Below the pieces are notes generated by a model. It worked only from the letters and a program-made list of their open reading frames with translations. It was not told the origin of the DNA and searched no databases. Position numbers and translations under genes: made by a program. Shown here in pieces: positions 2,917 to 23,015 of a stretch of DNA of 31,562 bases. Each line of letters starts with the position of its first letter. Within the stretch, counting starts at the first letter, position 1. The stretch lies in UHGV virus genome UHGV-0208736; one strand, 5' to 3'. Origin of the DNA: a virus.

Positions 2917-4337
2917 TTCTTACCTCGTCTCTTCATGTAATTAAGCAATTCTTCCTGTACCGATTTCTTCTCGTCTGTACGCGCGGCAACAACCTCGTCC
3001 AGCGTGTCTTTAGCAACGATGTGATAGAGGAATACCGGGCGTTCGTGGCCTGCCTGCTTCTGGCGGACCGGGCCTATACGCTCGACAACCTGCAAATAGT
3101 GCTCAAGGTTCCAGCCTTGCGAAATAAACGCCAGATGGTGACCGCCGTCCTGTAAATTCAAACCATGCCCGGCTGACGCAGGATGCACGCATAAGATTTC
3201 GATTTCGCCTCGGTTCCACGCCTCCATCTGCTTATTACCCTTCGCACCTTTAGAAAATGCCTGTGCCTGAGGGAATCGCTTAAGGATGCGTTCCAGTTCG
3301 TGCTTAAACTGATAGGCCACCAGTAACGGCGCACCCTGTAACTCCTCGACAATGGATTCCAGCGCATCCAGTTTCGTGTCATGAACTTTCTCCCAGTCTT
3401 TTGTTGCTTCGCCGTCCGGCCCTGATATGTACACTGCGCCGGATGCAATCTGCAAGCACTTCGACGTCTTCGCCGCTGCGTTAGCTGCTTCAACTTCTCC
3501 GCTTTCCAGCTCCGCGAATAGCTTCTCTTCCATGTCGATGTACGCCTGACGTGCTTTTTTCGGCAGGTCAATTTCAACCGGCACGATAATCGGCGCTTCA
3601 CACCCAAACCACTCGGCGGCGTCAATCGTGAGGCTGATGTCTTTCATCTTCTGGTGAATTTCGTTATCGGCGCCCGGGCGTGCGTGATACTCGCGGGCCA
3701 TCGCCGACTTACCTTTCTGTACAGAGTTAAACCATCGGTCGGTGAATGCCGTGTACGAAGAGCCGAGGCGCTCGCCTGCATCGATAAACCAGTTCTGACC
3801 CCACAAGTCCTTGAGGCCGTTTGGTGATGGCGTACCCGTCAGGTTAATGAAGCGCTTAACCTTTCCGAACGCCACTTTGCTAAGCGCCTTTGCCCTCTTG
3901 CTACCACCAGAACGGCTACGGAACGATTTCAGCTTCGTGCTTTCATCGGCAACGATAACAGTAAAAGGCCAGTCGTCTTTGCCGTAGTAGTCAATCAGCC
4001 ACTCGATAACTTCGTAGTTTGTACACACCACGTTAGCGTCTGACTCCAGCGCCGCGATACGGCGCTTCTCTGAACCTGTCGCATCGACGACGCTCAGACA
4101 TGGGAATTGCCATTTCTCTTGTTCCGCGGGCCATGTACCCGATGCAACGCGCAACGGGGCGAGGATTAACACCCGGTCCTCTTCCGTAAGCTGCCCGTTG
4201 CGGAACAGGCGGTTTAGAACCCACATTGTCGACGAGGTCTTGCCGCCGCCCATACCGCACCATATATTGCAACGTGGGTGCTGTAACATAAACGACGTCA
4301 TTATTTTCTGATATTCCCTGCGCCTAAACTTACTCAT
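2913..4337 (-). CDS. ATP-dependent DNA helicase, superfamily 2 (SNF2/DEAD-like)
   Basis: 474 aa; Walker A GMGGGKTS, DExx-like box IVADESTKL; start ATG overlaps stop of upstream HNH gene (ATGA); SD GGGGAG upstream. Confidence 0.7.
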   Translation of the reverse strand: MSKFRRREYQKIMTSFMLQHPRCNIWCGMGGGKTSSTMWVLNRLFRNGQLTEEDRVLILAPLRVASGTWPAEQEKWQFPCLSVVDATGSEKRRIAALESDANVVCTNYEVIEWLIDYYGKDDWPFTVIVADESTKLKSFRSRSGGSKRAKALSKVAFGKVKRFINLTGTPSPNGLKDLWGQNWFIDAGERLGSSYTAFTDRWFNSVQKGKSAMAREYHARPGADNEIHQKMKDISLTIDAAEWFGCEAPIIVPVEIDLPKKARQAYIDMEEKLFAELESGEVEAANAAAKTSKCLQIASGAVYISGPDGEATKDWEKVHDTKLDALESIVEELQGAPLLVAYQFKHELERILKRFPQAQAFSKGAKGNKQMEAWNRGEIEILCVHPASAGHGLNLQDGGHHLAFISQGWNLEHYLQVVERIGPVRQKQAGHERPVFLYHIVAKDTLDEVVAARTDEKKSVQEELLNYMKRRGKK

Positions 4338-4831
4338 GCCTTGAACTCCCCGAAGTATATTTCCGCGGCTCTTTGGTATACGCGCGACGCTTCTTCTATA
4401 GTGTCAAAATAGCCAAGGTGGATGTATTTGTTATTGACGCCTATTCTGGCGCGCCACCTGCCAGAGGGTATTTGGTAGACCCCTATCGCACCGCTAGTGT
4501 TATGTGGTGAGCAGTCTCGGTTCTGAATCTGCTGGCTCCTGGTTGCTGGCCTTATATTATTTATGGCGTTATTAGCCCTGTTACGGTCTTTATGGTCAAG
4601 CTCACCATTATGATATTCTCCGTAGACGAAAGCCCATGCCAGATGGTGGGCTTTTATTCTTACACCGGAGACCGTAATAACTATGTATCCTTTGTCGTTT
4701 GGTCCCCCGGCTACCTCCCCCGCATTTCTACCTTTTATGCTTACTTTCCGTGTAAATATGCCTGTTTCGGGGTCATAGTTAAGAAGACGTTTCGCCTCCT
4801 CAATATCAGGCCTTCTAGTTAATTTACTCAT
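4334..4831 (-). CDS. HNH homing endonuclease with AP2-type DNA-binding domain
   Basis: 165 aa; HNH core HHLAWAFVYGEYHNGELDHKDRNRANNAINNIRPAT; AP2-like GVYQIPSGRWRARIGVNNKYIHLGYFDTIEEASRVY; ATGA overlaps on both sides. Confidence 0.8.
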   Translation of the reverse strand: MSKLTRRPDIEEAKRLLNYDPETGIFTRKVSIKGRNAGEVAGGPNDKGYIVITVSGVRIKAHHLAWAFVYGEYHNGELDHKDRNRANNAINNIRPATRSQQIQNRDCSPHNTSGAIGVYQIPSGRWRARIGVNNKYIHLGYFDTIEEASRVYQRAAEIYFGEFKA

Positions 4832-5019
4832 TTCAACACCAGTACCAGCTCTTTACGTCCAAACGCCGTAACGTTACCTGTTACATCTTCGATAACCAGT
4901 TTACCGTTCGACTCTACGAACACCGTATCAACAGCAACAGGCTGGCGGGTTTTAACATTGAAAATCATGTCGCCAGGTACGATGTCACGTGCTGGTTTGC
5001 GGTCATATTCATGTTTCAT
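4828..5019 (-). CDS. hypothetical protein (63 aa), first gene downstream of promoter P1
   Basis: ORF with AAGGAA SD 7 nt upstream of ATG at 5019; stop overlaps HNH start. Confidence 0.5.
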   Translation of the reverse strand: MKHEYDRKPARDIVPGDMIFNVKTRQPVAVDTVFVESNGKLVIEDVTGNVTAFGRKELVLVLK

Positions 5020-5049
5020 TTCTCAATTCCTTATATTGTTGGTGTAGGA

Positions 5050-5334
5050 TTAACTATAATAGTTAGCTATTAGGTCGTCAACCTGTTTAAACGAACCAAC
5101 GACAAAAACATTTGCGCCACGTTTACGCATACGCTCGTGTTCTCGTAACTGGTGCGGGTCAGGTTTCGTGTTTTCGTCTTTCTTCACCTCTACGAACCAG
5201 ACGGTGCCGCCGGGGAGAATTACCAGCAGGTCGGGGGCGCCGGAACGCCCCTCGTACGAAAGTTTACGAACGAGGCCGCCCAGGGCCTCGAATCGCTCTT
5301 TTGCGTATTTCTGTACGCGTCCCTCTTTAGTCAT
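5050..5334 (-). CDS. VRR-NUC domain nuclease (PD-(D/E)xK superfamily)
   Basis: 94 aa; PDLLVI...VWFVEVKK...PHQLREHERMRKRGANVFVV matches VRR-NUC D...E-x-K pattern. Confidence 0.7.
   Translation of the reverse strand: MTKEGRVQKYAKERFEALGGLVRKLSYEGRSGAPDLLVILPGGTVWFVEVKKDENTKPDPHQLREHERMRKRGANVFVVGSFKQVDDLIANYYS
5053..5081 (-). promoter_or_regulatory. sigma70-type promoter P1 (minus strand): -35 TTGACG, 17-nt spacer, -10 TATAGT; contains 20-bp conserved core AACTATAATAGTTAGCTATT (plus 5052-5071)
   Basis: Reverse complement reads TTGACG-N17-TATAGT; the 20-bp core is identical to 11861-11880 and near-identical to 9362-9381; lies at the 3' end of the VRR-NUC gene immediately upstream of gene 4828..5019. 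Confidence 0.5.
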
Positions 5335-5483
5335 GGCCGCAGAATCCAGGTAATGAAAGCCCCGCCCAGAAGGGCAACACCGACAAACTTAAAGAACAGG
5401 CTATAACAGAACACCGCGGCTATTCCTGCACCGAGTAGCAGTGCCAGCATGGTTACTGTCGTCCAAAATACAAACATTGTCAT
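5331..5483 (-). CDS. unannotated 50-aa hydrophobic (membrane) peptide
   Basis: MTMFVFWTTVTMLALLLGAGIAAVFCYSLFFKFVGVALLGGAFITWILRP; ATGA overlap with upstream ORF stop and with VRR-NUC start; GGAG 10 nt upstream; below track cutoff. Confidence 0.4.
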   Translation of the reverse strand: MTMFVFWTTVTMLALLLGAGIAAVFCYSLFFKFVGVALLGGAFITWILRP

Positions 5484-5674
5484 AATAAAGGCTCCGCGTC
5501 CGGGTTACGCAGGAAGTACGCTTGGTAGATGTCGTGCTCCGTGTAGTAAACACCTTTGTGCGTACACCCGGCGCACGCATCGCTAAAGAACCCATCACCC
5601 ATTACCATGATAAATTCCCATTCCGGCATATCCACCAACGCAGCCAGTTTCTTACTAAATTGTTTGTTACTCAT
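5480..5674 (-). CDS. hypothetical protein (64 aa from ATG 5674; the track start at 5683 is GTG)
   Basis: MSNKQFSKKLAALVDMPEWEF...; GAGGGG SD upstream; ATGA overlaps at both ends. Confidence 0.45.
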   Translation of the reverse strand: MSNKQFSKKLAALVDMPEWEFIMVMGDGFFSDACAGCTHKGVYYTEHDIYQAYFLRNPDAEPLL

Positions 5675-5760
5675 AATACGCACCCCTCGCGTTTCGTATG
5701 TTCAATCCCGCAGCGCGGACAGATTCGGCAGTCTTCTTCATAGAACCAGTAAATTTTCAT
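5671..5760 (-). CDS. unannotated 29-aa Cys-rich peptide, possible zinc ribbon (MKIYWFYEEDCRICPRCGIEHTKREGCVL)
   Basis: CxxCxxC...C spacing; ATG overlaps upstream stop (ATGA) and its TGA overlaps the next ATG; weak SD so translation would rely on coupling. Confidence 0.3.
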   Translation of the reverse strand: MKIYWFYEEDCRICPRCGIEHTKREGCVL

Positions 5761-5888
5761 TCCAGCACCCACAGATAAATTGCGATAAACATGCCAAATA
5801 CGGCAACCATCATGCCGTATTGACCCTCGTGACAGTAGACACCGGCGGCGAATCCAGCCAGTACTGCGATAATCAGTTTACTTAGCAT
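5757..5888 (-). CDS. unannotated 43-aa hydrophobic (membrane) peptide
   Basis: MLSKLIIAVLAGFAAGVYCHEGQYGMMVAVFGMFIAIYLWVLE; ATG at 5888 lies 8 nt inside the 3' end of the DNA polymerase gene with AGAGGT SD 7 nt upstream. Confidence 0.35.
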   Translation of the reverse strand: MLSKLIIAVLAGFAAGVYCHEGQYGMMVAVFGMFIAIYLWVLE

Positions 5889-8148
5889 AACGGTACACCT
5901 CTTCCCCGGCCCATGTTAGTGGGAACCCTTTGGCCCATTCAGGTAATGAGCATAACAGGTCGCCCATCTCTTTAACCGTGTACTCCGGTGTGTCTGGTGT
6001 TTCGGCGACACACTCATCGTGTACGTGAAGTACAATTGGGTAGCCCGCTGCCTCGACCGTCAGGAGTCCGTTGACCAGTAAATCACGGCACAACGCTTGA
6101 ATGATGTTTTCACACAATTTTCCGCCGTGTGTGTACAAAGTCGTCCACTGGCGGGTGGTCTGATTTTCGCCCTGGTATTTAATGCGAACGTTAGTTGTTA
6201 CGCGCCCATCCTCGTCGGTCTCTTTAGTGACGCTTAAACCTATACCAGGGTAGGACATGATGCGCCCAGACGGCAGTTCCACACACAACCACCAACCCGG
6301 CACAAAGTTACCCTGTCTGTCTTTCTCTTTAGTACGCCAGATGCGAATAGCCCTGTCGCCGTTAAGGCGTACTCTGGCCCCCGCCCAAAACTCTCGTCCC
6401 GGATTTCTGATTGCAGCAATCACCGAATCCTTAAGGTCGTTCCAGAATCTCACTGTTTCCGGATGGGCCTCGCGCCACATGCGCTTGATAGCGTCGCAAG
6501 TGCGCCAGACTTCCTTAGGCAACACGTAAGAGGCCCGTTCGTCCTTTTTACCAGGTTTTGGCGGCCGCTTAGCCTCCTGAATCCGCGCCCATTCATAGCC
6601 TCGGGCAGTGGCGGCCCATATATGGTCAGGGAATGTCCCCCGCATTGTCTCCGTCATTTTAAAGAGGTCCAGCCCATAAGTTTTAGCCATAGTCATGAAG
6701 GCCCCTACACCTCCCTCGTAGCCGAGGCCCAGCTCGCAACATTTCCCGACCTGTCGTAGGTCTTTACGGGTGGCTTTCAGCTCTATAGGATCCATGCCAA
6801 ACATCTTGCCCGCAGTGGCGCAATAAATATCAATCCCCGCGCGGAACGTCTCAAGGGCAGATGTCTCCCCCGCCGTCCAGGCTAACCCACGGCCTTCCAC
6901 GTTCGAGTAGTCGGCAACGAGTAACTTATTACCTTTTTCCGGGATGATGCAGCTGCGGACAGTCGAGGCCGTTAGCTTAGATACATCAAAACGGCGATGC
7001 GCCCGGCCCTTTAAAAGCAAATTGATGCCGAAGGATAGCGGGTTAAGCCTGCGGTTCCAGTCTTCGTCGGACTCCCACGGCTGGCGTACGAGTTTCTTTT
7101 CCTCGTTAGTCGGGTCGTCGTGGTAGTACCCACGCGACAGGTTCTGCGGCTGGAACCCTTTGCCCGCAAATCGTAAAGTGCGCTTTGCCCCACCGTACTG
7201 GATGCAACCACGGCGTCGTCCGTCTTTGGACCGTCCTAGCAGGAGCGGTTTATATTTTGTTGACGCCGTGGAGGCCGCGCCGAGGCGCATCTCAATGATT
7301 GTGCGCGCATCGTTAGGTAAGTCGTCGTCCTCTAGCAAACCTTCGAGCGTTGCTTTCTGCGCATTATAAATATTGTAGGCCGGTGCCAGTTCCCGAAGGA
7401 TTGGCAGGAAGTCTTTGCCCGTTAGCTTCCCGCCAAATTTCGCGCGGGCCTCGTTTTTTAGCTCTTGCTTGTGACGTTCAACTGCCGCGACCGCCGCCTC
7501 AGCAAGAGCCGTATCGACAAAGAAGCCTCGGTCGTTGATTAGCTGGTCCAGTTCCAGTACACGGTCTTCGAACTCAGAGTTACCCCAACGCGGCAGCTTA
7601 TGGAAGACCTCACGCATTGCAGTGATGTCGCTTACGGCGTACTTGATGAACAGCGCCCACTCGTCCGGGTGTGTTTCCGCGGTGTAGCGACGGATTTTGT
7701 AGTTCTTCGGCGTCGGTTTAGAGAAACGCTGAATCAGCGCCTTGCCCCGCTTATCTTTCGCGTTGTCCGCAGATACTCCCAGCACTTCGCATAATGCATC
7801 GAGTGAACCCGGCAGCGCGTGGCGAAACGCCCAAATCATCGTATCAATGGTGTTGCTTACCGGAATATCAAAACCCCAGCAGTGCTTCATGATGAGCCTA
7901 TCGAACATTAAAAAGTTATGGCCCACGATTTTCATACGTCCGCGCATAACATTACGGAGCGCCATGCGTAGGCTTATTGGCATTACTGGTTCGGAAGTGC
8001 AATCCCATACTTCTACTGGACCATCATCAACGGCATACGTACAAATTATAACCTCTGTCGTTGGGTGCTCCGCATACGCATACGACCCGACTTTCTTTAA
8101 GTCTGCTTCGGAGAATGTCTCGGTATCCAGGTATAATAAACTAGTCAT
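5878..8148 (-). CDS. DNA polymerase, family A, with N-terminal 3'-5' exonuclease domain
   Basis: 756 aa; Exo I motif YLDTETFS; polymerase motif A LLVADYSNVEGR; motif C VLHVHDECV; AAGGAA SD upstream of ATG 8148. Confidence 0.85.
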   Translation of the reverse strand: MTSLLYLDTETFSEADLKKVGSYAYAEHPTTEVIICTYAVDDGPVEVWDCTSEPVMPISLRMALRNVMRGRMKIVGHNFLMFDRLIMKHCWGFDIPVSNTIDTMIWAFRHALPGSLDALCEVLGVSADNAKDKRGKALIQRFSKPTPKNYKIRRYTAETHPDEWALFIKYAVSDITAMREVFHKLPRWGNSEFEDRVLELDQLINDRGFFVDTALAEAAVAAVERHKQELKNEARAKFGGKLTGKDFLPILRELAPAYNIYNAQKATLEGLLEDDDLPNDARTIIEMRLGAASTASTKYKPLLLGRSKDGRRRGCIQYGGAKRTLRFAGKGFQPQNLSRGYYHDDPTNEEKKLVRQPWESDEDWNRRLNPLSFGINLLLKGRAHRRFDVSKLTASTVRSCIIPEKGNKLLVADYSNVEGRGLAWTAGETSALETFRAGIDIYCATAGKMFGMDPIELKATRKDLRQVGKCCELGLGYEGGVGAFMTMAKTYGLDLFKMTETMRGTFPDHIWAATARGYEWARIQEAKRPPKPGKKDERASYVLPKEVWRTCDAIKRMWREAHPETVRFWNDLKDSVIAAIRNPGREFWAGARVRLNGDRAIRIWRTKEKDRQGNFVPGWWLCVELPSGRIMSYPGIGLSVTKETDEDGRVTTNVRIKYQGENQTTRQWTTLYTHGGKLCENIIQALCRDLLVNGLLTVEAAGYPIVLHVHDECVAETPDTPEYTVKEMGDLLCSLPEWAKGFPLTWAGEEVYRYAK

Positions 8149-8614
8149 GGCAATAAAATTCCTTATGCAGTTTTTCTCTTAATTTCTTTACCGCGCTTTC
8201 TGCTTCTTCAAGAGTTCCGTAGCTACCAGCATTGTAACTTTTGTAGTTAAAGTGTACCCGCCCATAAAATCGGTTGCCGTTTTTAACTACTCCCTTAACT
8301 CCCGTTCTAGCTCCCTTATTTTTAGCGTTTCGCACATTATCTGCGGTGGTTGCTTTCCTTAGGTTAGAAATCCTATTGTCTAACCTGTCTCGGTTTATGT
8401 GGTCAAGAGGTCCCTCGGGCCATTCACCGTACTCGAAAAACCAAGCAAGCCTGTGGGCCATGTAATATCTGCCCATATAAGGTATTCGCCAGTATCCACT
8501 ACTATTGATGCATCCTGCGATGTCTCCAGGTTTTCCTCGTCTGTACGTAGGTTGTATCCATGTGAATATCCCGGTTTCTCGGTTATAGCTAAGAAAATCT
8601 TTTATATGTTCCAT
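8141..8614 (-). CDS. HNH homing endonuclease with AP2-type domain (start taken at ATG 8614; the track start at 8638 is TTG)
   Basis: HNH core MAHRLAWFFEYGEWPEGPLDHINRDRLDNRISNLR; AP2-like GVKGVVKNGNRFYGRVHFNYKSYNAGSYGTLEEAESA; AT-rich relative to neighbours; stop overlaps polymerase start by 8 nt. Confidence 0.75.
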   Translation of the reverse strand: MEHIKDFLSYNRETGIFTWIQPTYRRGKPGDIAGCINSSGYWRIPYMGRYYMAHRLAWFFEYGEWPEGPLDHINRDRLDNRISNLRKATTADNVRNAKNKGARTGVKGVVKNGNRFYGRVHFNYKSYNAGSYGTLEEAESAVKKLREKLHKEFYCHD

Positions 8615-8626
8615 TCTGACTCCGGT

Positions 8627-8649
8627 AAAAAGGCCCAATGAAGGGCCTT
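8627..8649 (-). terminator. rho-independent terminator on minus strand after the SSB-like gene
   Basis: Minus-strand RNA: AAGGCCC-UUCAUU-GGGCCUU followed by UUUACC; 20 nt downstream of the TAA at 8669-8671. Confidence 0.45.
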
Positions 8650-8668
8650 AGTTAAATTGATTCATATA

Positions 8669-9307
8669 TTAGCGGCGGCGACGTTCGCGACGCGGTGCAG
8701 GTTCATCATCCTCAAGGTCGTTAAGGTCTACGGTAGCTCCGGCACCGCCGAATGCTTCGCCATCATCCTTAAAGCGAACACCGAGGAGTTCTACGCCGAG
8801 GTTTTTATAAGTTGAGTACCAATACACATCAACTACGATATTAGCGTAACAACCAGAATAAACTTCCTTACCTTCTACATCGTCACCTGCTTCGGTAAGG
8901 CCCTTGACTACACGCCCGCCGCGTTGGCACTGCACCTCACCCTCAGAAGTCGCGATCATAGGTTGCTTACGGCTCTTAGCCATGAAATACAAACCTTCCT
9001 CAAGCCCTTCAATCGGTGAATCACGCTGTGCGAGGTCGCGGAACGCACATTTATCTGCATGGTTTCCGAAGCCGAAGTTTTTTGACATCCACTTTTCGGC
9101 GGCAGAAGCACTACCTAACGCTTCAGTCATAACTTCAGTTACAGCGTCTTCAATTTTCTCAATTTGCGGGTCGTCTTTATCCAGATACGCTGTAAGCTGG
9201 TATTGGCCTTCTACTTGTTGCCCCTGACTATTTACACGGTCCGCTGCTTTCTTATAAACGTCTACCCATCCGATACGCACGTTGCTCAGTTTAACTTTGA
9301 TACCCAT
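8669..9307 (-). CDS. possible ssDNA-binding protein (T7 gp2.5-like / DUF2815-like), acidic C-terminal region
   Basis: 212 aa; N-terminus MGIKVKLSNVRIGWVDVYKK...GQYQLTAYLDKDD resembles the gp2.5-like SSB family pattern (from memory); C-terminus DLNDLEDDEP; GAGGAA SD upstream; first gene after promoter P2. Confidence 0.4.
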   Translation of the reverse strand: MGIKVKLSNVRIGWVDVYKKAADRVNSQGQQVEGQYQLTAYLDKDDPQIEKIEDAVTEVMTEALGSASAAEKWMSKNFGFGNHADKCAFRDLAQRDSPIEGLEEGLYFMAKSRKQPMIATSEGEVQCQRGGRVVKGLTEAGDDVEGKEVYSGCYANIVVDVYWYSTYKNLGVELLGVRFKDDGEAFGGAGATVDLNDLEDDEPAPRRERRRR

Positions 9308-9362
9308 ATCTCGATTCCTCAGTTTTCAGTTTACTCCGGGAACTGCCCGGCCAGTGATTAGA

Positions 9363-9392
9363 ACTATAATAGCTAACTATTCGGGTTGTCAA
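9363..9392 (-). promoter_or_regulatory. sigma70-type promoter P2 (minus strand): -35 TTGACA, 18-nt spacer, -10 TATAGT; core AACTATAATAGCTAACTATT (plus 9362-9381)
   Basis: Reverse complement reads TTGACA-N18-TATAGT; the core differs from P1/P3 only by inversion of the central 4 bp; located in the 89-bp intergenic gap upstream of the SSB-like gene. Confidence 0.5.
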
Positions 9393-9396
9393 CACT

Positions 9397-9570
9397 TTAT
9401 TTAAGTTTCTTCGGAACTACCTTATAAATATAGGGCTGCACCGCCTCATGCTTTGAGTTCTTCTCTTCTGCAATTTTGTCGGCGTCGGCGCGTTTAGCGT
9501 GAACAGAGACAATATCAAGTTCTTGAATAGAGTATCGGCGGTGATATCGCGTGAGAATATAAACCATCAT
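9397..9570 (-). CDS. hypothetical protein (57 aa from ATG 9570)
   Basis: MMVYILTRYHRRYSIQELDIVSVH...; strong SD GAGGAGGA 6-7 nt upstream; ATG overlaps stop of the exonuclease gene (ATGA). Confidence 0.45.
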   Translation of the reverse strand: MMVYILTRYHRRYSIQELDIVSVHAKRADADKIAEEKNSKHEAVQPYIYKVVPKKLK

Positions 9571-15026: not shown

Positions 15027-15131
15027 TTAACGTTCTCCTATGTAAGATGTACCGAAGTATAAGGCGGTAACTTTGTAAAAGCAACCAAAACACCACACAA
15101 AGTTACTAAGATACAAAAGATGCTACTGGTA

Positions 15132-15340: not shown

Positions 15341-15368
15341 GCCCCGCTTTAAGGCGGGGCTTTACTTA
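15341..15368 (+). terminator. intrinsic terminator at the end of a ~200-nt leader, 18 nt upstream of the first late gene
   Basis: GCCCCGC-TTTAAG-GCGGGGC hairpin followed by TTTACTTATC; located between the promoter at 15132-15160 and the SD of the i-spanin gene. Confidence 0.55.
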
Positions 15369-15385
15369 TCGAGAAAGGGGGAAAC

Positions 15386-15881: not shown

Positions 15882-15963
15882 TTGCCTTGCATGTTGGAAT
15901 AATTTATTCTTGACATGTAAATCCGGGTGGCCCGGATTCCAACGTCCAGGGGACATACTGACT

Positions 15964-16665
15964 ATGAATCGTTTTTTACGTTATCCGTTCCAGGAAGAAG
16001 CTGGGGCAGAAGATAAATCTGGTGGCGGTGATGCGCCGAAAATGTTCACCGCTGAAGAAGTTCAGGCGCTGATTGAGAAAGAAGTCGCCGGGCTTAAGGC
16101 TAATCAGGAAGCATTGCTGGCGGAGAAGAAAGAAGCCGCTCGTAAAGCAAAAGAGGCCGAAGAAGAACGGCAGCGCGCACACCAGGAGGCGTTAAAAGCC
16201 GCTGGTAAGATGGACGAGTTCGAAAAGACGATTCGTAGCCAGTATGACCCGGTGTTAGCCGAGAAAGATGGTCGCATCTCCAGAATGGCAGAGCGCATCC
16301 TCGGCAGCGAACGTAAAGCGGTGTTAGGCTCTTTCGCGGGTGACTTTATTACCCCGGAAGCAGTAGACATTCTTGCACCGTTCGTTAAGACTGAGTTTGA
16401 AGGTGATGATGTGGTTACTAAGTTTGTCGGTGCAGATGGCAACGTAATCACGACTGACCCGGAACAGTTCCGCAAATACCTGCGCGAACATAAAGCGTTT
16501 TCGCATTTGATTAAAGCAAATGCAGCTTCCGGCGGCGGGGCTTCCGGCAGCAAAGGCGGCGGGGCCGCACCAGCGTTTAAAGACATGAGTGAAGCAGAGC
16601 GTTTAGCTCTGTATAAATCGAACCCTGCCGAATTTGAACGGCAACTTAAAGCCCTGAGGAAATAA
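15964..16665 (+). CDS. capsid scaffolding protein (233 aa from ATG 15964; the track start at 15910 is TTG)
   Basis: Charged coiled-coil-rich protein (EEVQALIEKEVAGLKANQEALLAEKKEAARKAKEAEEERQ) immediately upstream of the major capsid gene. Confidence 0.55.
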   Translation: MNRFLRYPFQEEAGAEDKSGGGDAPKMFTAEEVQALIEKEVAGLKANQEALLAEKKEAARKAKEAEEERQRAHQEALKAAGKMDEFEKTIRSQYDPVLAEKDGRISRMAERILGSERKAVLGSFAGDFITPEAVDILAPFVKTEFEGDDVVTKFVGADGNVITTDPEQFRKYLREHKAFSHLIKANAASGGGASGSKGGGAAPAFKDMSEAERLALYKSNPAEFERQLKALRK

Positions 16666-16667
16666 TA

Positions 16668-17717
16668 ATGGCAATTACCACTATCGGCGATATCGTAACT
16701 GGCAACATCCCGGTCCTTGCGTCTTATATGACAGAGGACCCGGTAGAAAAAACCGCGTTCTTCCAGTCCGGTATTCTCACCCCTACCCCGTACGCTGCCG
16801 AGATTGCTCGCGGTCCGTCCAACATCGCTAATATCCCTTTCTGGAAAGCGATTGATACATCTATCGAACCGAACTACTCGAACGACGTATACCAGGACAT
16901 CGCAACCCCGCGTAATGTCCAGACCGGTGAGATGATGGCTCGCGTAGCGTACCTGAACGAAGGTTTCGGTCAGGCGGACCTGACGGTAGAACTGACCAGT
17001 CAGAACCCGCTGCAATCCGTAGCGTCCCGTCTGGATAACTTCTGGCAGCGCCAGGCACAACGTCGTCTGATTGCTACCGCGCTCGGCCTGTACAACGACA
17101 ACGTAGCTGCGACCGATGCGTACCACGAGCAGAATGACATGGTTATCGACGTGTCTGCTACTATGGGCTTCGACTCTGGCGCGTTCATCGACGCTACTCA
17201 GACTATGGGTGATGCGCTGATGGGTAACGGTGGTGAAGTGCTGGGTGCTATCGCGATGCACAGCTTCGTTTATGCGCAGGCCCGTAAGCAGCAGCTTATC
17301 GACTTCATCCGCGATGCGGACAACAACACCATGTTCGCCACCTACCAGGGCTATCGTGTGATTGTTGATGACAGCATGACCGTAGTCGGTACTGGCGGCA
17401 GCCGTAAGTTCATCTCCATTATCTTCGGCAACGGCGCTATCGGTTACGGCGAAGGTAACCCGGTCAAACCGCTGCACTACGAGTACGAAGCGTCCCGTGG
17501 TAACGGTGGTGGTGTCGAAACCCTGTGGACCCGTAAGACCTGGTTACTGCATCCGTTCGGCTACAGCTTCACCAGCGCAGTAATCACCGGCAACGGCACC
17601 GAGACCGTCGCACGCTCCGCTTCCTGGCAGGACCTGGCGAACGCCTCCAACTGGAACCGTGTGGTTGAGCGTAAGCACGTGCCGATTGCCTTCCTGGTAA
17701 CTGGTGTAGGCGCTTAA
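16668..17717 (+). CDS. major capsid protein
   Basis: 349 aa; follows scaffold with SD GAGGAA; strongly biased codon usage; followed by strong UUCG-loop terminator. Confidence 0.65.
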   Translation: MAITTIGDIVTGNIPVLASYMTEDPVEKTAFFQSGILTPTPYAAEIARGPSNIANIPFWKAIDTSIEPNYSNDVYQDIATPRNVQTGEMMARVAYLNEGFGQADLTVELTSQNPLQSVASRLDNFWQRQAQRRLIATALGLYNDNVAATDAYHEQNDMVIDVSATMGFDSGAFIDATQTMGDALMGNGGEVLGAIAMHSFVYAQARKQQLIDFIRDADNNTMFATYQGYRVIVDDSMTVVGTGGSRKFISIIFGNGAIGYGEGNPVKPLHYEYEASRGNGGGVETLWTRKTWLLHPFGYSFTSAVITGNGTETVARSASWQDLANASNWNRVVERKHVPIAFLVTGVGA

Positions 17718-17732
17718 GGTTAAGCTATAATC

Positions 17733-17760
17733 GAGAGGGACTTCGGTCCCTCTTTTCATT
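17733..17760 (+). terminator. rho-independent terminator after major capsid gene
   Basis: AGAGGGAC-TTCG-GTCCCTCT hairpin followed by TTTCATTT. Confidence 0.6.
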
Positions 17761-17776
17761 TACTAAGAGGTAAAGT

Positions 17777-18076
17777 ATGGCTAAGACCGGAAAAGGCTTA
17801 CCGCGCAGCCTTCAGAACGTTGACTTCGGCGACTTTGATATCCCCGTCGCACCGGCTACTACCAGCGCAGTTGGTGGGGTTAAAAAGTCAGCTACTGTAG
17901 CTGCGCCAGCAGCCATTACCGCTGCCGCCGGGGTGCAGTCCGCTGCGGACCCGACTAAGGCAGAGTTCGATGCGCTTGTAGCGGAGTACAACAAACTCCG
18001 AACCGATGTTACTGCGCTACGCACTACCGTAGCAAATTTGTTGACTGCGCTTAAAAACGCAGGAACTGTAAGCTAA
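17777..18076 (+). CDS. hypothetical virion protein (99 aa), possible head decoration protein
   Basis: Ala/Thr-rich ORF with SD AAGAGG; position between capsid and Ig-like protein genes. Confidence 0.4.
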   Translation: MAKTGKGLPRSLQNVDFGDFDIPVAPATTSAVGGVKKSATVAAPAAITAAAGVQSAADPTKAEFDALVAEYNKLRTDVTALRTTVANLLTALKNAGTVS

Positions 18077-18088
18077 AGGAGCTTAAAA

Positions 18089-18436
18089 ATGGTTGATGTA
18101 ATCAAACGTCGCATTGTTGGCGTCTCTGATGAAGACTCCGACGGTCAGGTTGAAATTGACATGGAGAATATTTCTCCTGCATCTTTCTCTACCGCACTCG
18201 CGGCTACCACCGAAGTTACAGCGGGGCAGACAATGACCCTCACCGTAGCAGTAACCGGCGGGTCTGAACCGTATTCGTACCAGTGGTTCAAGGATAACAA
18301 CGCTATCCCAGGCGCTACCGCGGCTACCTATGTTAAAGCGTCAACCACTACAGCCGATTCTGGCACGTATAAAGTGGTTGCGCAGGATGATTATGGTAAT
18401 ATTATCTCCAGTAGCACTGTAGCAACTGTGTCTTAA
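18089..18436 (+). CDS. Ig-like domain protein (probable capsid/virion decoration)
   Basis: 115 aa; SYQWFKDNNAIPGATAATYVKASTTTADSGTYKVVAQDDYGN resembles I-set/Big-type Ig repeat; SD AAGGAG; followed by UUCG-loop hairpin 18442-18457. Confidence 0.5.
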   Translation: MVDVIKRRIVGVSDEDSDGQVEIDMENISPASFSTALAATTEVTAGQTMTLTVAVTGGSEPYSYQWFKDNNAIPGATAATYVKASTTTADSGTYKVVAQDDYGNIISSSTVATVS

Positions 18437-18472
18437 TACAACGGCCCTTCGGGGCCGTAATAAGGAAAGGTC

Positions 18473-18652
18473 ATGGCAGATAATTATGTAATCCGCGAAA
18501 AGTACACCCACGTTGATGTTGTTAACGGTCAGGTGATGCCTGTTCGCGGGGTTGTAGGAGCGGATGAACTGGTTGCTACCCAACCGGACAACGAAGAAGC
18601 GCACAACAACGGCGGTGGTACTAAGCGTCGTCGCCGTAAATCAGAGGAATAA
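18473..18652 (+). CDS. unannotated 59-aa protein with basic C-terminus (…GGGTKRRRRKSEE)
   Basis: ATG with SD AAGGAAAGG; fills the gap between Ig-like gene and connector gene; one residue below track cutoff. Confidence 0.4.
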   Translation: MADNYVIREKYTHVDVVNGQVMPVRGVVGADELVATQPDNEEAHNNGGGTKRRRRKSEE

Positions 18653-18655
18653 TTC

Positions 18656-19168
18656 ATGCCGCTAATCGTGGAAGATGGGTCCATAGTACCTGGCGCTGAC
18701 AGTTACATTAGTCTGGCTGACGCCCGCGCGTTAGCGGCTAACTATGGTCTGGAGTTACCCGCCGACGATACCGCGGCGGAAGTAGCTCTGCGAAATGGGA
18801 CAACTTACGTAGGCCTGTCTGAGCCGCAGATGTGCGGTCGCTGCGTGTCGGCGGAGCAGTCACTGGCATATCCTCGCACTGGTGTTACGCTAAACGGGTT
18901 CCCAGTAGCTAACAACACCATTCCAAAACAGGTGATTCTTGCGCAGGTAATCGCTGCGGCTACATATGGCGCAGGTACTGAGGTACGGGCTAACTCAGAC
19001 GGTCGTTCCGTGCAGACTGAGCGTGTCGAGGGTGCGGTAACGGTGACATACTTCAACAACGGCAACAGTGGCGCTACAACCGCGATTACCGCTGCGGACG
19101 ATGCCTTACGCCCGTTACTGTGTGGCGGTCTTAACAATGGCTTCTCATTTAACGTGTATCGGGGATAA
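18656..19168 (+). CDS. head-tail connector/adaptor protein (gp6-like, DnaT-like domain pattern)
   Basis: 170 aa; N-terminus MPLIVEDGSIVPGADSYISLADARALAANYGL resembles adaptor-protein N-termini (from memory). Confidence 0.45.
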   Translation: MPLIVEDGSIVPGADSYISLADARALAANYGLELPADDTAAEVALRNGTTYVGLSEPQMCGRCVSAEQSLAYPRTGVTLNGFPVANNTIPKQVILAQVIAAATYGAGTEVRANSDGRSVQTERVEGAVTVTYFNNGNSGATTAITAADDALRPLLCGGLNNGFSFNVYRG

Positions 19169-19170
19169 AA

Positions 19171-19785
19171 ATGGCGAAGACCAAAACAGAGATGTTTACC
19201 CTTATCGGTGCGAACCTACCCGATAACATCACCGGACTTATTACCCCGGCAGCATTGCGCGAGGTAATGACGCAGATGGCCGACTCGCCTATTTACGCCA
19301 CTCCGGGGGTTAAAGAGGTTGAAGTTCTCCGTGCTGCATCGACCGTAACACAAGCGCCGACCGCAGTAGATACGGCATTGCAGTTAACTTTCGGCTCCGC
19401 TCAGGGTGGCGCATCTGACCCCGTGATGATTAACGCGGCAGGTCTGGTTACATTCAACACCGCGGGTAACTACGCCGTTCGCATCAAGTTACAGGCAGGA
19501 CGCACGGGGGCTAGTGGTACATCTATCCTGCTATCGCGCCTCCTTGTCAATGGCACTCAGTACGGCTCGCCCGCCGCCACGAAACTGGTTAGCGCCGACG
19601 TAACGATTCCGATTGAATCTCGCGTCGTTATTAACCCAACCGCAGGCCAGACGTTTGCCGTTCAGATTATGCGAGATAGCGCCGGTAGTAACTTCGGCGG
19701 CGTATACCCGCAAGCGGCTACCGTAACCGCATGGGGTACAGCACCGTCCGCGCTACTGGTTATCTCGAGACTGGAGGCCGCGTAA
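19171..19785 (+). CDS. hypothetical virion structural protein (204 aa)
   Basis: ORF within head-tail joining gene block; function not assignable from sequence. Confidence 0.4.
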   Translation: MAKTKTEMFTLIGANLPDNITGLITPAALREVMTQMADSPIYATPGVKEVEVLRAASTVTQAPTAVDTALQLTFGSAQGGASDPVMINAAGLVTFNTAGNYAVRIKLQAGRTGASGTSILLSRLLVNGTQYGSPAATKLVSADVTIPIESRVVINPTAGQTFAVQIMRDSAGSNFGGVYPQAATVTAWGTAPSALLVISRLEAA

Positions 19786-19916
19786 TGCGTAAAATAATTA
19801 ATATGTGGATTAACTCTGATTTTTTGTGGAAGTACGAATTTTTGGTATCAGTGTTTGCGCTGGTATCAACAACAGCTCTAATTATATTTTTAGCGGTTTG
19901 CGGGGAGTCAATATGA
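19785..19916 (+). CDS. unannotated 43-aa membrane peptide in an AT-rich insert (MRKIINMWINSDFLWKYEFLVSVFALVSTTALIIFLAVCGESI)
   Basis: TAATG overlap with upstream stop and ATGA overlap with downstream start; local GC far below neighbours. Confidence 0.35.
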   Translation: MRKIINMWINSDFLWKYEFLVSVFALVSTTALIIFLAVCGESI

Positions 19917-20272
19917 GCACCGCTTTCAGTAAACGTATGCAAGGCGTTGGTACACGACTACTAACCAAATTCGGTAGCACGGTATCGCTGGTTCGCGCTG
20001 GCTTGAAAGTGTGGGATGAAGCCCTCGGCGAGTACGTATGGTCTGCGGATGAAGTGCTGCCGTTGAGGGCCGTTCCGGTTCCGGTAAACGCGGGACTGGT
20101 AAACGGTACGACGATTCAGGCTGGCGACATGATTGTCAAAGCGGATTGCAGTGTCGTTCCGAAGATGGAAGACAAGGTGCAATTCGGCGGAGAGCAATGG
20201 TCTGTCGTAGCTATCGAGAAGAAGATGGTTAATGATGATGTCGTGGCGTATTTTATTCAGGTGAGAAAATGA
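19913..20272 (+). CDS. hypothetical head-tail joining protein (119 aa from ATG 19913)
   Basis: SD GGGGAG 8 nt upstream; the longer track ORF starting 19826 runs through the AT-rich insert in another frame and lacks an SD. Confidence 0.45.
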   Translation: MSTAFSKRMQGVGTRLLTKFGSTVSLVRAGLKVWDEALGEYVWSADEVLPLRAVPVPVNAGLVNGTTIQAGDMIVKADCSVVPKMEDKVQFGGEQWSVVAIEKKMVNDDVVAYFIQVRK

Positions 20273-20664
20273 GTTTCGCGCTTGATGTCTCTAAGTTCGT
20301 GGAAAAGGCGAAGAAGAACCCCGAGAAGGTGATGCGTCAGGTGTCTATCAAGCTGTTTTCCGCTATCATAAAGGCGAGTCCGGTAGATACGGGCCGCTTT
20401 CGTATGAACTGGATGGCATCTGGCGGTATTCCTGCTTCCGGGATTACGGACGCTACGGATAAATCAGGAAACATAGCTATCGGAAACGCTACGAGTTTCG
20501 TTCTGAAAGCTACAGACTGGCACGAGTTCACGCTGACAAATAATCTGCCGTATGCACAACGTCTGGAGTATGGTTGGTCGCAACAGGCCCCTGCCGGGAT
20601 GGTCCGGACTAACGTGTCCCGCTTCCAGCAACTCATTAACGAAGAAGCCAACAAGGTGAAATGA
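20269..20664 (+). CDS. HK97 gp10-like tail-component / head-tail joining protein
   Basis: 131 aa; ASPVDTGRFRMNW matches the PVDTGxLRxSW signature of the HK97 gp10 family (from memory). Confidence 0.5.
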   Translation: MSFALDVSKFVEKAKKNPEKVMRQVSIKLFSAIIKASPVDTGRFRMNWMASGGIPASGITDATDKSGNIAIGNATSFVLKATDWHEFTLTNNLPYAQRLEYGWSQQAPAGMVRTNVSRFQQLINEEANKVK

Positions 20665-21077
20665 TGGGATACTTTGAGGACTTAACAAAAGCGTTTGATG
20701 TGCCGCTGGTAGCCTTCGGAACCACCAACGGCATCAGGGTTGCGCTTGAAAACATCGACGCGCCGACGTCGACCGATACCCCGTATCTGGCAAGTTACAT
20801 GCTACTTGCGGATACGGAACAGGCTGACTTGTTCTTCACGGAACAACGTGCAGGTGTCTATCAGGTCGACATTAACTACGCATCGGTGAAAGGTAGCGCG
20901 CCGATCAATAAAATGGCAGACTTACTTAACACGGCGTTTAAAGCGGGTAAGTCATTTTCACGTAATGACATCTGTGCCGAGGTTCAATCGGTTAGCCTGG
21001 GGCCGCTGATTGTAGAAAACGGATGGGCCAAAAGACCATTGTCAATTAACTTTATTGCATTCACCAAGAGGCTGTGA
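20661..21077 (+). CDS. probable tail terminator / tail completion protein
   Basis: 138 aa; position immediately upstream of major tail gene; overlapping start/stop. Confidence 0.35.
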   Translation: MMGYFEDLTKAFDVPLVAFGTTNGIRVALENIDAPTSTDTPYLASYMLLADTEQADLFFTEQRAGVYQVDINYASVKGSAPINKMADLLNTAFKAGKSFSRNDICAEVQSVSLGPLIVENGWAKRPLSINFIAFTKRL

Positions 21078-21079
21078 AT

Positions 21080-22246
21080 ATGGCTACAACTCCTTTTAAG
21101 GGCGCGAATACCGCGCAATTCTATGTGGCGGAAACTACCCCGGGCGTAGCACCGGCTAACCCGGTATGGTCGCCGTTGCGTAACACTGGCGGTGTTCCTG
21201 CGGTAACCCGCGATGCGCTAACTTCCAACGAACTGGACGGCAGCCGTGAAACTACATCCATCCGAACCGGTAACAAGCAGGTTAGCGGGGAGTATGCCAT
21301 CGAGCTTAGCTCACGTAGCCAGGATGATTTCCTCGCGGGCGCGATGACTTCTACGTGGCAGGCTGGGGTAGAGATTACGGGTGCTGAAATTACGGTTGCC
21401 CCAGCAGGTAAAACATTTACCCGCGCTGCCGGTAGCTTCATTACTGACGGTGTAGAAGTTGGCGACCTGATTGCGTTCACCGACTTAACTGGCGACAACG
21501 CAAAACCGTTTATCGTGACCGAGGTTTCTGCTCTTGTAGTTACGGGTGCTGGCATTCAGCACACGCTGACAGCAGAGACTGTAACCACCGACGCTAAAAC
21601 CGGTGACAAACTGGAAACCGGTAACGCATGTAAGACGTTCTCCATCCTGACGTGGTTCAAAGGTCAGTGCGGCAACCCGGACGCGTACATGCTGACCAAA
21701 GGTGTCGAAATCTCTGGCTTCACCATAGAGCAAGCGGTCAACGCGATGGTTACGGGTAGCTTCCCGTTCATCGGCTTGAGCCAGGAGATTCTTTCTGCAC
21801 CGCCAGCGGGTTCTGACTTCTCGCAAGTAACCTTCACCGATGAGCCGTTCTCGTCTGTAGATGTGTCTGTGTTCGACGGTTCTACGCCGTTACGTTGCGA
21901 CACGCTTACCATCACCAACGACAACGGCGCATCCGCGCAGTTTGAACTCGGCAACAGTAGCGTGGCGTTCGTGGAACGTGGTCGCGCGGCTAACACCTTC
22001 TCCATCTCAGGCAAGCTGTACGACATGGCGATGATTCAGAAGTTTATCAACGAGCAGCAGGTAGAGATTAACTCTATTCTGGCGGGGGTAAACGGTGCTA
22101 TGTCTTTCAGTTTGAAACGTGCGGAGCTCACGGCGGTTACGCCAGAGATTGGCGGACCGGAGTCAATCACTCAAAGCATAGAAGGACAGTCCACAGGTAA
22201 CCAGTACCAGTCGTCTATTGTTATTCAGCGCATCACCTACGCATAA
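21080..22246 (+). CDS. major tail (tube) protein
   Basis: 388 aa from ATG 21080 (SD AAGAGG 8 nt upstream); followed by strong terminator; precedes chaperone and tape-measure genes. Confidence 0.5.
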   Translation: MATTPFKGANTAQFYVAETTPGVAPANPVWSPLRNTGGVPAVTRDALTSNELDGSRETTSIRTGNKQVSGEYAIELSSRSQDDFLAGAMTSTWQAGVEITGAEITVAPAGKTFTRAAGSFITDGVEVGDLIAFTDLTGDNAKPFIVTEVSALVVTGAGIQHTLTAETVTTDAKTGDKLETGNACKTFSILTWFKGQCGNPDAYMLTKGVEISGFTIEQAVNAMVTGSFPFIGLSQEILSAPPAGSDFSQVTFTDEPFSSVDVSVFDGSTPLRCDTLTITNDNGASAQFELGNSSVAFVERGRAANTFSISGKLYDMAMIQKFINEQQVEINSILAGVNGAMSFSLKRAELTAVTPEIGGPESITQSIEGQSTGNQYQSSIVIQRITYA

Positions 22247-22252
22247 AACTAA

Positions 22253-22276
22253 GGCCCCTTTCGGGGCCTTTTTCTT
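22253..22276. terminator. bidirectional rho-independent terminator between major tail gene and the minus-strand accessory island
   Basis: GGCCCC-TTTC-GGGGCC followed by TTTTTCTT (plus); on minus strand the same hairpin is followed by UUAGUUUUAU. Confidence 0.6.
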
Positions 22277-22505
22277 ACTCATCAATATTACTCCTGTACT
22301 CCCGTAACTTCTCCAGACTTTCAATTGCTTCTGCTAAGTCGGTTCCGGTGTCCTTGTGTCCCCGCAAGCCCATGCACAATAGCTTCTTTAATGCGTGCTG
22401 TAATGCTGGGTCTCGGATATCGAAGGCACGGAGCACATCATAAACGTCTACAGTCATGGTGCTGCCGTGAGTATTTGTCATTGTGCGGTTGTATTTTGAA
22501 GTCAT
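22275..22505 (-). CDS. hypothetical protein (76 aa), last gene of accessory island
   Basis: ORF; start codon choice uncertain (Met1, Met9 or Met17), none with a strong SD. Confidence 0.4.
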   Translation of the reverse strand: MTSKYNRTMTNTHGSTMTVDVYDVLRAFDIRDPALQHALKKLLCMGLRGHKDTGTDLAEAIESLEKLREYRSNIDE

Positions 22506-22514
22506 CTCTAAGCC

Positions 22515-23015
22515 CTATTTATAACCGTTGTTGAATGTTGTCAGCCCGTGGTTTATGTGGAATTTATTGGCTACGGACATGTAAATTCTTTCCGCAAAAG
22601 CGTCCTCTATTCTGTCAAATGTTTTACTAATCTGCTTGCCATTGACAACGGCATACGCTCTCCACTTAGTTTTTCCTTTCCGCGCCACGCCAGTAACTCC
22701 AGAGGTATTATCTTTGCGCCTTTTCACGTTAACCATGTTGTCCCTTCTTGATTTGCAGGACAGGTTTTCAATTCTGTCATCACATGTATCATGGTTAGTG
22801 TGGTCTATGACAAATCCTTTCGGAATCTTACCTGAGAACATCTCATACACCACCCTCGACCTTTTAAACTTACGGTTGCCAAACATGACGTACCAATAGC
22901 CGTTTTTACACAAACTCCCAGCCACATCACCTACATTCACATCGTTACGGCGACACGATTTTACTTTCCAGTATAGGACGCCGTTTTTGTAGCTAAAAAC
23001 TTCGCTCCAGTCCAT
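22515..23015 (-). CDS. HNH homing endonuclease with AP2-type domain (third copy)
   Basis: HNH core GFVIDHTNHDTCDDRIENLSCKSRRDN; AP2-like GVTGVARKGKTKWRAYAVVNGKQISKTFDRIEDAFAERIY. Confidence 0.75.
   Translation of the reverse strand: MDWSEVFSYKNGVLYWKVKSCRRNDVNVGDVAGSLCKNGYWYVMFGNRKFKRSRVVYEMFSGKIPKGFVIDHTNHDTCDDRIENLSCKSRRDNMVNVKRRKDNTSGVTGVARKGKTKWRAYAVVNGKQISKTFDRIEDAFAERIYMSVANKFHINHGLTTFNNGYK

Follow-up and report, generated by a model that had tools for sequence, protein, structure and literature searches.

Three free-standing HNH endonuclease genes of a Kagunavirus-like phage occupy polymorphic junctions and are linked to the haplotypes of adjacent genes

The virus genome UHGV-0208736, of which a stretch of 31,562 nucleotides (nt) was analyzed at its full length (referred to as the window), is that of a Kagunavirus-like siphophage (Guernseyvirinae) with an Escherichia coli-phage backbone, and it carries three genes for HNH endonucleases that we label HEG1, HEG2, and HEG3. 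A previous sequence-only reading of the window had predicted three endonuclease open reading frames (ORFs) at 4334-4831, 8141-8614, and 22515-23015, and all of them were found as described on the minus strand. Searches of the window by tblastn with the three proteins and two further HNH proteins of relatives revealed exactly three copies of the HNH gene. The three genes and the features that surround them are given below; loci of relatives are designated in the following by L and a number.

4334..4831, minus strand: HEG1, 165 amino acids (aa), free-standing HNH_3 plus AP2 endonuclease gene (ORF, Pfam, PHROG 99)
8141..8614, minus strand: HEG2, 157 aa from ATG, free-standing HNH_3 gene with an AP2-like C-terminus (ORF, Pfam, PHROG 99)
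22515..23015, minus strand: HEG3, 166 aa, free-standing HNH_3 gene, AP2-like at its C-terminus and flanked by the exonuclease/phosphoesterase gene and the 76-aa gene
2913-4337, minus strand: SNF2-type helicase, 474 aa
4828-5019, minus strand: 63-aa gene, upstream neighbor of HEG1
5053..5081, minus strand: sigma-70-like promoter match TTGACG-17-TATAGT (consensus match only), preceding the 63-aa gene/HEG1/helicase unit
5878-8148, minus strand: family A DNA polymerase, 756 aa
8630..8649, minus strand: terminator-like hairpin of 7 bp, GC-rich and followed by a T-run, 3' of the SSB gene (folding: -13 kcal/mol, z = -2.6)
8669-9307, minus strand: Enc34-type single-stranded DNA-binding protein (SSB) gene, upstream neighbor of HEG2
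21074-22246: tail tube protein gene
22275-22505: 76-aa gene, downstream of HEG3
23031-24185, minus strand: DNA-repair exonuclease/calcineurin-like phosphoesterase gene (PHROG 704)

Each of the three endonuclease genes constitutes an ORF of its own whose start and stop codons are separate from those of its neighbors, with overlaps of 4 or 8 nt only, and the neighboring genes are intact; helicase (474 aa) and polymerase (756 aa) are of full length in comparison with those of relatives. The genes are situated at intergenic junctions between continuous ORFs and are hence not intron-encoded; no Rfam intron search was made. HEG1 had been described as ATGA-coupled between a small gene and the helicase, and such an ATGA is indeed found at both of its ends, overlapping the stop codon of the 63-aa gene (4831-4828) and the start codon of the helicase (4337-4334). 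A promoter has been predicted in the annotation of phage fBC-Eco01 at the place equivalent to the promoter match at 5081-5053. HEG2 had been placed between a terminator and the polymerase start with an overlap of 8 nt, an arrangement that is exact with respect to the overlap of the HEG2 stop codon with the polymerase ATG (ATGACTAG, 8148-8141). The hairpin at 8649-8630 was not listed by a consensus terminator scan and was confirmed by folding; the annotation of fBC-Eco01 has a terminator at the same place. It is kept in genomes with and without HEG2, marks the upstream edge of the HEG2 insertion, and is followed by a GGAG at 8623-8620, between hairpin and HEG2. HEG2 and the polymerase both lie behind this SSB terminator in carriers and non-carriers. 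Since the TTG at position 8638 is located inside the hairpin, it is unlikely to serve as the HEG2 start codon.

All three proteins exceed the Pfam HNH_3 cutoff of 24.8 bits by far (HEG1, 39 bits, E 6e-10; HEG2, 56.5 bits, E 2e-15; HEG3, 58.2 bits, E 6e-16) and match PHROG 99 ('HNH endonuclease') over their full length (E 4e-61, 2e-58, and 4e-50, respectively). Judged from these matches, they are paralogous HNH endonucleases of PHROG 99, with pairwise protein identities of 29-36%. The D-H dyad, the Asn of the 'N-L/I' motif, and a downstream Asn are invariant in the three proteins and align to the DH...NL...N residues of I-HmuI; we take these to be the catalytic and metal-binding residues, as in the structure of that enzyme. 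A common HNH-AP2 domain order had been ascribed to all three genes. This holds for the HNH part in each of them and for AP2 in HEG1, where Pfam AP2 is matched with 34.4-37.1 bits (cutoff 33.3), but Pfam does not recognize an AP2 domain in HEG2 or HEG3. Among proteins of known structure, HEG1 matches the plant AP2 domain of WRI1 (E 1e-7) and, when searched alone, I-HmuI (1u3e) at E 0.09. A family profile that combines HEG3 with other non-HEG1 HNH genes of relatives finds I-HmuI over residues 2-130 (E 9e-7) and, with HEG1 excluded, AP2 domains in the PDB at E 0.004-0.04 (WRI1, 0.004; TEM1, 0.006). The HEG2-family profile matches I-HmuI at E 5e-5 and AP2 only at E 0.52. The C-terminus of HEG2 aligns to the AP2 region of HEG1 (BLASTP, E 1e-24 for the alignment running through this region), has a match to the small PHROG 33760 in common with the AP2 domain of HEG1, and adopts a beta-beta-beta-alpha arrangement (pLDDT, the per-residue model confidence, of 71-88) in an AlphaFold2 model whose alignment consisted of the three window paralogues only. 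We therefore consider the HNH-AP2 label firm for HEG1, moderately supported by the profile matches for HEG3, and only likely for HEG2.

The GC content of HEG2 (0.426) and HEG3 (0.427) falls into the lowest 2-3% of all 480-nt windows of the analyzed DNA, which has an overall GC content of 0.504. The claim that the first two genes are AT-richer than their neighbors clearly applies to HEG2; HEG1 (0.468, the 20th percentile) lies below the helicase (0.532) but not below the upstream 63-aa gene (0.453), and HEG3, whose composition had not been remarked upon, is as AT-rich as HEG2. In comparisons with orthologues, synonymous differences by far outnumber non-synonymous ones, with ratios of non-synonymous to synonymous divergence (dN/dS) of 0.04-0.20 for HEG1, 0.01-0.03 for HEG2, and 0.01-0.02 for HEG3, at dS values of up to 0.5. 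Since dN/dS is that low overall (0.01-0.20), the three proteins are maintained.

The replication module of the window matches 456 phage records with 80-95% identity, comprising E. coli Kagunaviruses and Salmonella Jerseyviruses. A presence/absence polymorphism at the exact junctions, which the sequence-only reading had suggested looking for in related genomes, exists for each of the three genes. HEG1 DNA is present in 46 records (36 of them full length; 38 Salmonella and 6 Escherichia), HEG2 DNA in 6, all of them Escherichia, and HEG3 DNA in 129 (119 Salmonella, 5 Escherichia), so that a fixed presence of the genes at identical positions in all relatives is clearly not seen. No record among the matches listed possesses HEG1, HEG2, and HEG3 together; Salmonella virus VSt10 has HEG1 and HEG3. 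Homologues of HEG1 (63% identity) and HEG2 (68%) are found at the same two sites in the clade of L050, L053, and L056, whose helicase is about 72% identical to that of the window.

The slot upstream of the helicase was surveyed in about 55 IMG/VR relatives whose helicase is at least 90% identical. It is empty at 13 loci and also empty, with an intein inside the helicase, at five others; it contains HEG1 at five loci, a C5-methyltransferase in a short or long form at 25, and a different HNH-AP2 gene at one. In phage Henuyfy11N, the DNA equivalent to window positions 4338-4820 is missing and the 63-aa gene abuts the helicase, while the slot measures 17 nt in fBC-Eco01 and holds a C5-methyltransferase of 684 nt in SZH-1. 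HEG1 is truncated in Salmonella phage SS3e. The label 'intein-containing helicase' lies over HEG1 matches in Salmonella phages. In JD02, this name is only a propagated one, and the helicase of that phage has the normal length but is split by a frameshift; other Jerseyviruses do possess inteins (see below). Phage fmb-p1 was left out since its genome looks rearranged. The long C5-cytosine methyltransferase, which is absent from the window, occupies the HEG1 slot in many Kagunaviruses (L016-L030, L045, L051, L062, and L066; ~5030-6008) and has a variable middle region; at all of the long-form loci inspected, the same DNA also encodes a further long ORF of 213-280 aa in a different frame, and the methyltransferase gene is split by a frameshift in L016 and L019.

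At the HEG2 junction, the DNA corresponding to window positions ~8137-8624 is missing in Henuyfy11N, SZH-1, and L009. The latter is particularly informative, since its polymerase allele is nearly the same as that of the window (98% aa identity) and its site is cleanly empty: the terminator is followed by TAAGGGTCAGAAATG..., while in the window it is followed by CGGAGTCAGAATG, HEG2, and ...ATGACTAG. HEG2 is frameshifted in L026. The SSB gene of the window (8669-9307, minus strand) is a rare allele with about 45% aa identity to that of most relatives and 100% to that of L026. It is not simply linked to HEG2, since other HEG2 carriers possess the common SSB allele.

The junction between the exonuclease gene and the 76-aa gene is truly empty in the Kagunaviruses L088, L090, and L091. 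It contains HEG3 in L079, Ent2, and wksl3, a different HNH gene in L093, a 66-aa ORF in L089, and a methylase in SE2; in other relatives, kinase/phosphatase genes replace the 76-aa gene. Deletion footprints of HEG3 were detected in L080 (5152-5225) and L085 (3762-3835), both of which keep the first ~26 and the last ~22 nt of the ORF, and in L083 (5152-5252), which keeps its last ~50 nt. At least two independent internal deletions of the gene among Jerseyvirus-type alleles can be deduced from these footprints. C-terminal-only PHROG matches had raised the idea that the 76-aa gene is the remnant of an ATPase gene truncated by the HEG3 insertion; this was rejected because the 76-aa ORF is conserved, stands alone, and directly abuts the exonuclease gene in Kagunaviruses without the endonuclease gene. 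A 91-aa ORF upstream of the exonuclease gene (24224-24499, minus strand) matches PHROG 1039, 'immunity to superinfection' (E 3e-23), and is annotated in relatives as 'putative immunity protein'.

In relatives, the replication module has no fewer than three other slots with further HNH-AP2 genes: after the DUF2800 nuclease, between the polymerase and the VRR-NUC gene, and downstream of the helicase (L031, L034, L042, L017, L028, and L032). Genes of this kind were seen at L003 8209-8631, L024 ~3978-4493, and 3858-4364 in both L038 and L043 as well. In the window, each of the slots is either empty or filled differently. Just downstream of the helicase, the window carries a 171-aa Toprim-like ORF (2401-2916, minus strand) that scores just above the cutoff of Pfam Toprim_2 and matches the central part only of PHROG 849, 'DNA primase' (E 2e-48). 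This is another variable slot, which in relatives contains HNH endonuclease genes or two tiny ORFs.

Each endonuclease gene is linked to a particular haplotype of the gene next to it (helicase, polymerase, or exonuclease), which is what co-conversion during homing would predict. Three tracts can be delimited in the window.

4200..4337, minus strand: helicase 5' tract travelling with HEG1, minimally ~nt 1-75 of the gene and up to ~130 in some carriers
7561..8148, minus strand: 5' segment of the polymerase gene, of the type seen in HEG2 carriers, beginning with ~200 nt of a rare HEG2-linked haplotype
23031..23895, minus strand: 3' portion (~870 nt) of the exonuclease gene, of the Jerseyvirus type and continuous with HEG3; the remainder of the gene belongs, like either flank, to the Kagunavirus type

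Over the first 150 nt of the helicase gene, alleles accompanied by HEG1 differ from the window at 8-16 positions and those without it at 17-48, and HEG1 carriers of both genera share the first 75-130 nt of the window helicase. Identity reaches its maximum (94-100%) over HEG1 and the helicase 5' end and amounts to 80-92% farther out; in the Salmonella phages SE2 and SS3e, it is 94-98% over HEG1 and the helicase tract and 80-90% beyond.

The polymerase gene of the window is a chimera. From its start to position 7561, it is 90-98% identical to the genes of HEG2 carriers, whereas from 7528 onward it is 90-98% identical to those of the HEG2-free L009, L044, and L015 and 62-78% to those of HEG2 carriers, which places the crossover to the other polymerase backbone between 7561 and 7528. 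In a survey of 37 polymerase alleles, the first ~200 nt were 93-94% identical to the window in all HEG2 carriers, 84-90% in three of the 34 non-carriers, and 54-66% in the remainder; nt 201-590 are conserved in nearly all alleles surveyed. Judged from these alleles, the HEG2-linked tract measures at least ~200 nt. We considered and rejected the idea that the crossover at about nt 600 is specific to HEG2 carriers: it is a boundary found throughout the population, including genomes without the endonuclease gene, and is therefore not unique to carriers; only the first ~200 nt are linked to HEG2. Farther into the gene, a stretch of about 100 nt (~7045-7144, minus strand) shares 32-34% identity with one class of alleles and 93-97% with the other, and it includes a length difference of about 70 nt (~24 codons) between the polymerase alleles (756 vs. 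~732 aa).

At HEG3, informative sites change cleanly from the Kagunavirus to the Jerseyvirus type between 23,902 and 23,895 and revert between 22,507 and 22,499, the latter switch coinciding with the HEG3 stop codon and the start of the 76-aa gene. HEG3 therefore makes up, together with the 3' part of the exonuclease gene, a 1.4-kb block of the Salmonella-phage type (22,500-23,900) that is 91-96% identical to Ent2 and wksl3; typical Kagunaviruses are about 50-60% identical to the window over this segment.

Helicase and polymerase are also targets of inteins in related phages. The Jerseyvirus relatives L037, L038, L039, L043, and L065 (4861-7326) possess an intein of the LAGLIDADG type in the helicase P-loop (MGSGK/CLKRG...LAGLLDSDGY...VTHN/TSSTMW, junctions marked by slashes). 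The corresponding site in the window, 4239/4238 (codons 33/34), is about 100 nt away from HEG1 and free of an intein; in our sample, HEG1 and the intein do not occur together, the HEG1 slot being empty wherever the helicase has an intein. One may speculate that HEG1 competes or cooperates with the helicase intein for the same target zone, but the HEG1-linked tract in its minimal form (nt 1-75) ends before the P-loop is reached, and this speaks against such an interplay. The idea that HEG1 targets the intein/P-loop site itself is weakened by the HEG1 carriers L009 and L044, which have a non-linked P-loop haplotype. A second intein is found in the DNA polymerase of the same Jerseyvirus relatives (L037 1169-4264; RQIGKA/CLHRH...LVAHN/CELGLGY). 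The window reads RQVGKCCELGLGY at the equivalent site (~6738, codons 470/471) and has no intein there; in several other relatives, the polymerase match is broken at residue 471.

Collectively, these data make it highly probable that HEG1, HEG2, and HEG3 belong to the free-standing HNH-AP2 homing endonuclease genes and that their products would be enzymes of the I-HmuI-like type. The interpretation as homing endonuclease genes, put forward by the sequence-only reading, gains support from the polymorphism of the junctions and from the linkage to flanking haplotypes; we infer cleavage of the cognate genes, the target sites, and the role of the endonucleases as the cause of the exchanges from these patterns. 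The predicted enzymes would consist of an N-terminal DNA-binding region, the HNH catalytic motif, and a C-terminal DNA-binding domain of the AP2 type. Located at intergenic junctions, their genes interrupt no other gene, and they would be co-transcribed and translationally coupled with their neighbors. In a mixed infection with a relative that lacks the endonuclease gene, the enzyme would nick or cut the genome of this relative near the empty junction, in or beside the 5' end of the helicase gene (HEG1), the 5' end of the polymerase gene (HEG2), or the junction between the exonuclease and 76-aa genes (HEG3). Recombinational repair from the genome of the carrier would then copy the endonuclease gene along with an adjacent stretch. 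The HEG3 tract may be long because resection would have to pass through the 3' part of the exonuclease gene, which is strongly divergent, in order to reach homologous sequence again. The intact, broken, deleted, and empty states of the sites, taken together, are what a homing cycle would be predicted to leave behind.

Several observations weigh against this interpretation. With respect to domain architecture, a Pfam search with the isolated C-termini of HEG2 and HEG3 yielded no AP2 match even at E<=10, and HEG1 has a Gln where HEG2, HEG3, and I-HmuI have, by spacing, an Asn. The HEG2 model is of modest confidence (overall pLDDT 68), and its Foldseek comparison with the PDB produced no significant match; the hit with the highest probability was the AP2 domain of TEM1 (E 0.39, prob 0.96), and I-HmuI was not recovered in this search, so that model and Foldseek comparison lend the AP2-like C-terminus weak support. 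With respect to the distribution of the genes, the Jerseyvirus-type alleles without HEG3 in our sample are deletions of the gene and not virgin sites. Three HEG2-free genomes possess the HEG2-linked 5' haplotype at 84-90% identity, and the boundary near nt 600 divides the allele types of the polymerase in genomes without HEG2 as well. In addition, the same junctions hold cargo other than nucleases in relatives (C5-methyltransferases, an N-methylase, kinase/phosphatase genes, and small ORFs), and they are therefore general slots for accessory genes. Because of this cargo and because some mosaic boundaries occur in genomes devoid of the endonuclease genes, homing is the best-supported explanation of the data but not a demonstrated one.

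The same two observations are also the principal arguments for the view that the three genes are passengers in hypervariable accessory slots, with cassettes being exchanged at generic hot spots through ordinary homologous or illegitimate recombination and the HNH genes not driving their own spread; the replacement of the SSB gene next to HEG2 by an allele of about 45% identity without visible involvement of a nuclease fits this view as well. We nevertheless regard it as improbable. The nuclease motif is intact and under strong purifying selection, the identity to phages of the other genus is maximal on the endonuclease gene and decays outward, and one edge of the Jerseyvirus-type block is the HEG3 stop codon itself. 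Moreover, the sites of HEG1 and HEG2 are both occupied again by homologous HNH genes in the clade with the ~72% identical helicase, and HNH-AP2 proteins are an established family of homing endonucleases found at the boundaries of exchange (PMC10448857).

That the three genes have been domesticated, as DNA-binding regulators or nickases that serve the phage in replication, in packaging, or in AP2-mediated repression like that of the CapR/AP2 CasPR proteins, is less probable still, and we consider it very unlikely. The very low dN/dS at substantial synonymous divergence, the translational coupling to essential replication genes, and the recruitment of AP2 domains as phage repressors (bioRxiv 10.64898/2026.02.23.707548) would be in keeping with such a role. 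However, most close relatives are without each of the genes, so that none of them is needed for the life cycle of the phage, and the catalytic D-H...N...N residues are kept. A function like that of the terminase-associated HNH protein gp74 of HK97 is at odds with this absence from most relatives and with the lack of an adjoining terminase or portal gene: the neighbors of HEG1, HEG2, and HEG3 are the helicase, polymerase, SSB, exonuclease, and tail tube genes. A CasPR-like repressor role was rejected on domain grounds, since CasPRs have CapR instead of HNH and occur in prophages of Bacillota.

Viewed as homing endonuclease genes, HEG1, HEG2, and HEG3 have several well-studied counterparts. By sequence, their best relative of solved structure is I-HmuI (1u3e) from the Bacillus phage SPO1, with which they share the N-terminal region and the HNH motif. 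I-HmuI is a nicking endonuclease of the HNH type that is encoded by an intron of the phage DNA polymerase gene, and HEG2 is likewise associated with a polymerase gene. I-HmuI resides inside a group I intron and has a C-terminal helix-turn-helix domain, whereas the three proteins studied here are encoded by free-standing genes outside the coding sequence of their neighbors and have an AP2-like end. Related genes have been annotated before: the HEG1 orthologue of phage fFiEco03 (FE3_035, 'putative homing endonuclease') was noted to be similar to I-HmuI by HHpred, and orthologues of HEG2 and HEG3 are fBC-Eco01_045 ('HNH endonuclease') and SEP1_gp22 of vB_SenS-Ent1 ('putative HNH endonuclease'), respectively. 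All of these are found at the same genomic positions and have 93-99% nucleotide identity.

HNH-AP2 homing endonucleases of phages, cyanobacteria, and protists are attributed to Magnani et al. (2004), as cited in Barth, Dunham & Seed (2023; PMC10448857), and proteins that combine HNH and AP2 form a published homing endonuclease family found at the boundaries of exchange between phages, the members of phage ICP1 being named 'IPA-HNH' (PMC10448857). The three genes of the window resemble this family in possessing an N-terminal HNH part and a C-terminal part that is AP2 in HEG1 and AP2-like in HEG2 and HEG3, in being small free-standing phage genes, and in their position at boundaries of exchange. 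They differ in that the IPA-HNH proteins of ICP1 fail the Pfam HNH_3 profile, which HEG1, HEG2, and HEG3 pass easily, with Pfam AP2 in HEG1 only. Moreover, they reside in siphophages of the Guernseyvirinae that infect E. coli and Salmonella. The T4 endonucleases SegG, SegE, and MobE bring about marker exclusion in which flanking genes are co-converted (cited in PMC10448857). They resemble HEG1, HEG2, and HEG3 in standing free between essential genes; the latter would spread likewise by cutting a genome that lacks the endonuclease gene and would leave co-conversion tracts of hundreds of nt. The Seg enzymes are of the GIY-YIG type and belong to another phage lineage, and their activity has been demonstrated in T4, whereas it is deduced for HEG1, HEG2, and HEG3.

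In the literature searched on Jerseyviruses and Guernseyvirinae, we found homing endonucleases, inteins, and mosaicism mentioned in passing only and found no junction-level or flank-linkage analysis. HEG1, HEG2, and HEG3 are an already known and already annotated kind of phage element; the gap is one of description, and no new kind of element is introduced. As a more far-reaching and tentative proposal, of which we are somewhat less convinced than doubtful, these genes might drive gene flow between phage genera with different hosts, and HEG3 might have carried two thirds of the Jerseyvirus exonuclease gene into a Kagunavirus, thereby creating the chimeric gene of the window. If this were true, the HEG3 repair tract would have run through about 870 nt of ~55% identical sequence before homology was reached.

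While the general picture of phage biology is unchanged by these three genes, they are of practical value as a clean example of elements that would drag neighboring DNA between phages. They mark the mosaicism of the genome, with its chimeric polymerase gene, its chimeric exonuclease gene, and its helicase 5' tract, and this mosaicism matters for taxonomy, for phylogenies based on polymerase or helicase, and for the engineering of Kagunaviruses as small chassis for synthetic biology. With their hundreds of sequenced genomes, no fewer than three HNH lineages that look active, and their empty sites, deletion footprints, and inteins in the same genes, the Guernseyvirinae provide a tractable natural system in which homing, the length of co-conversion tracts, and the decay of homing endonuclease genes can be measured.

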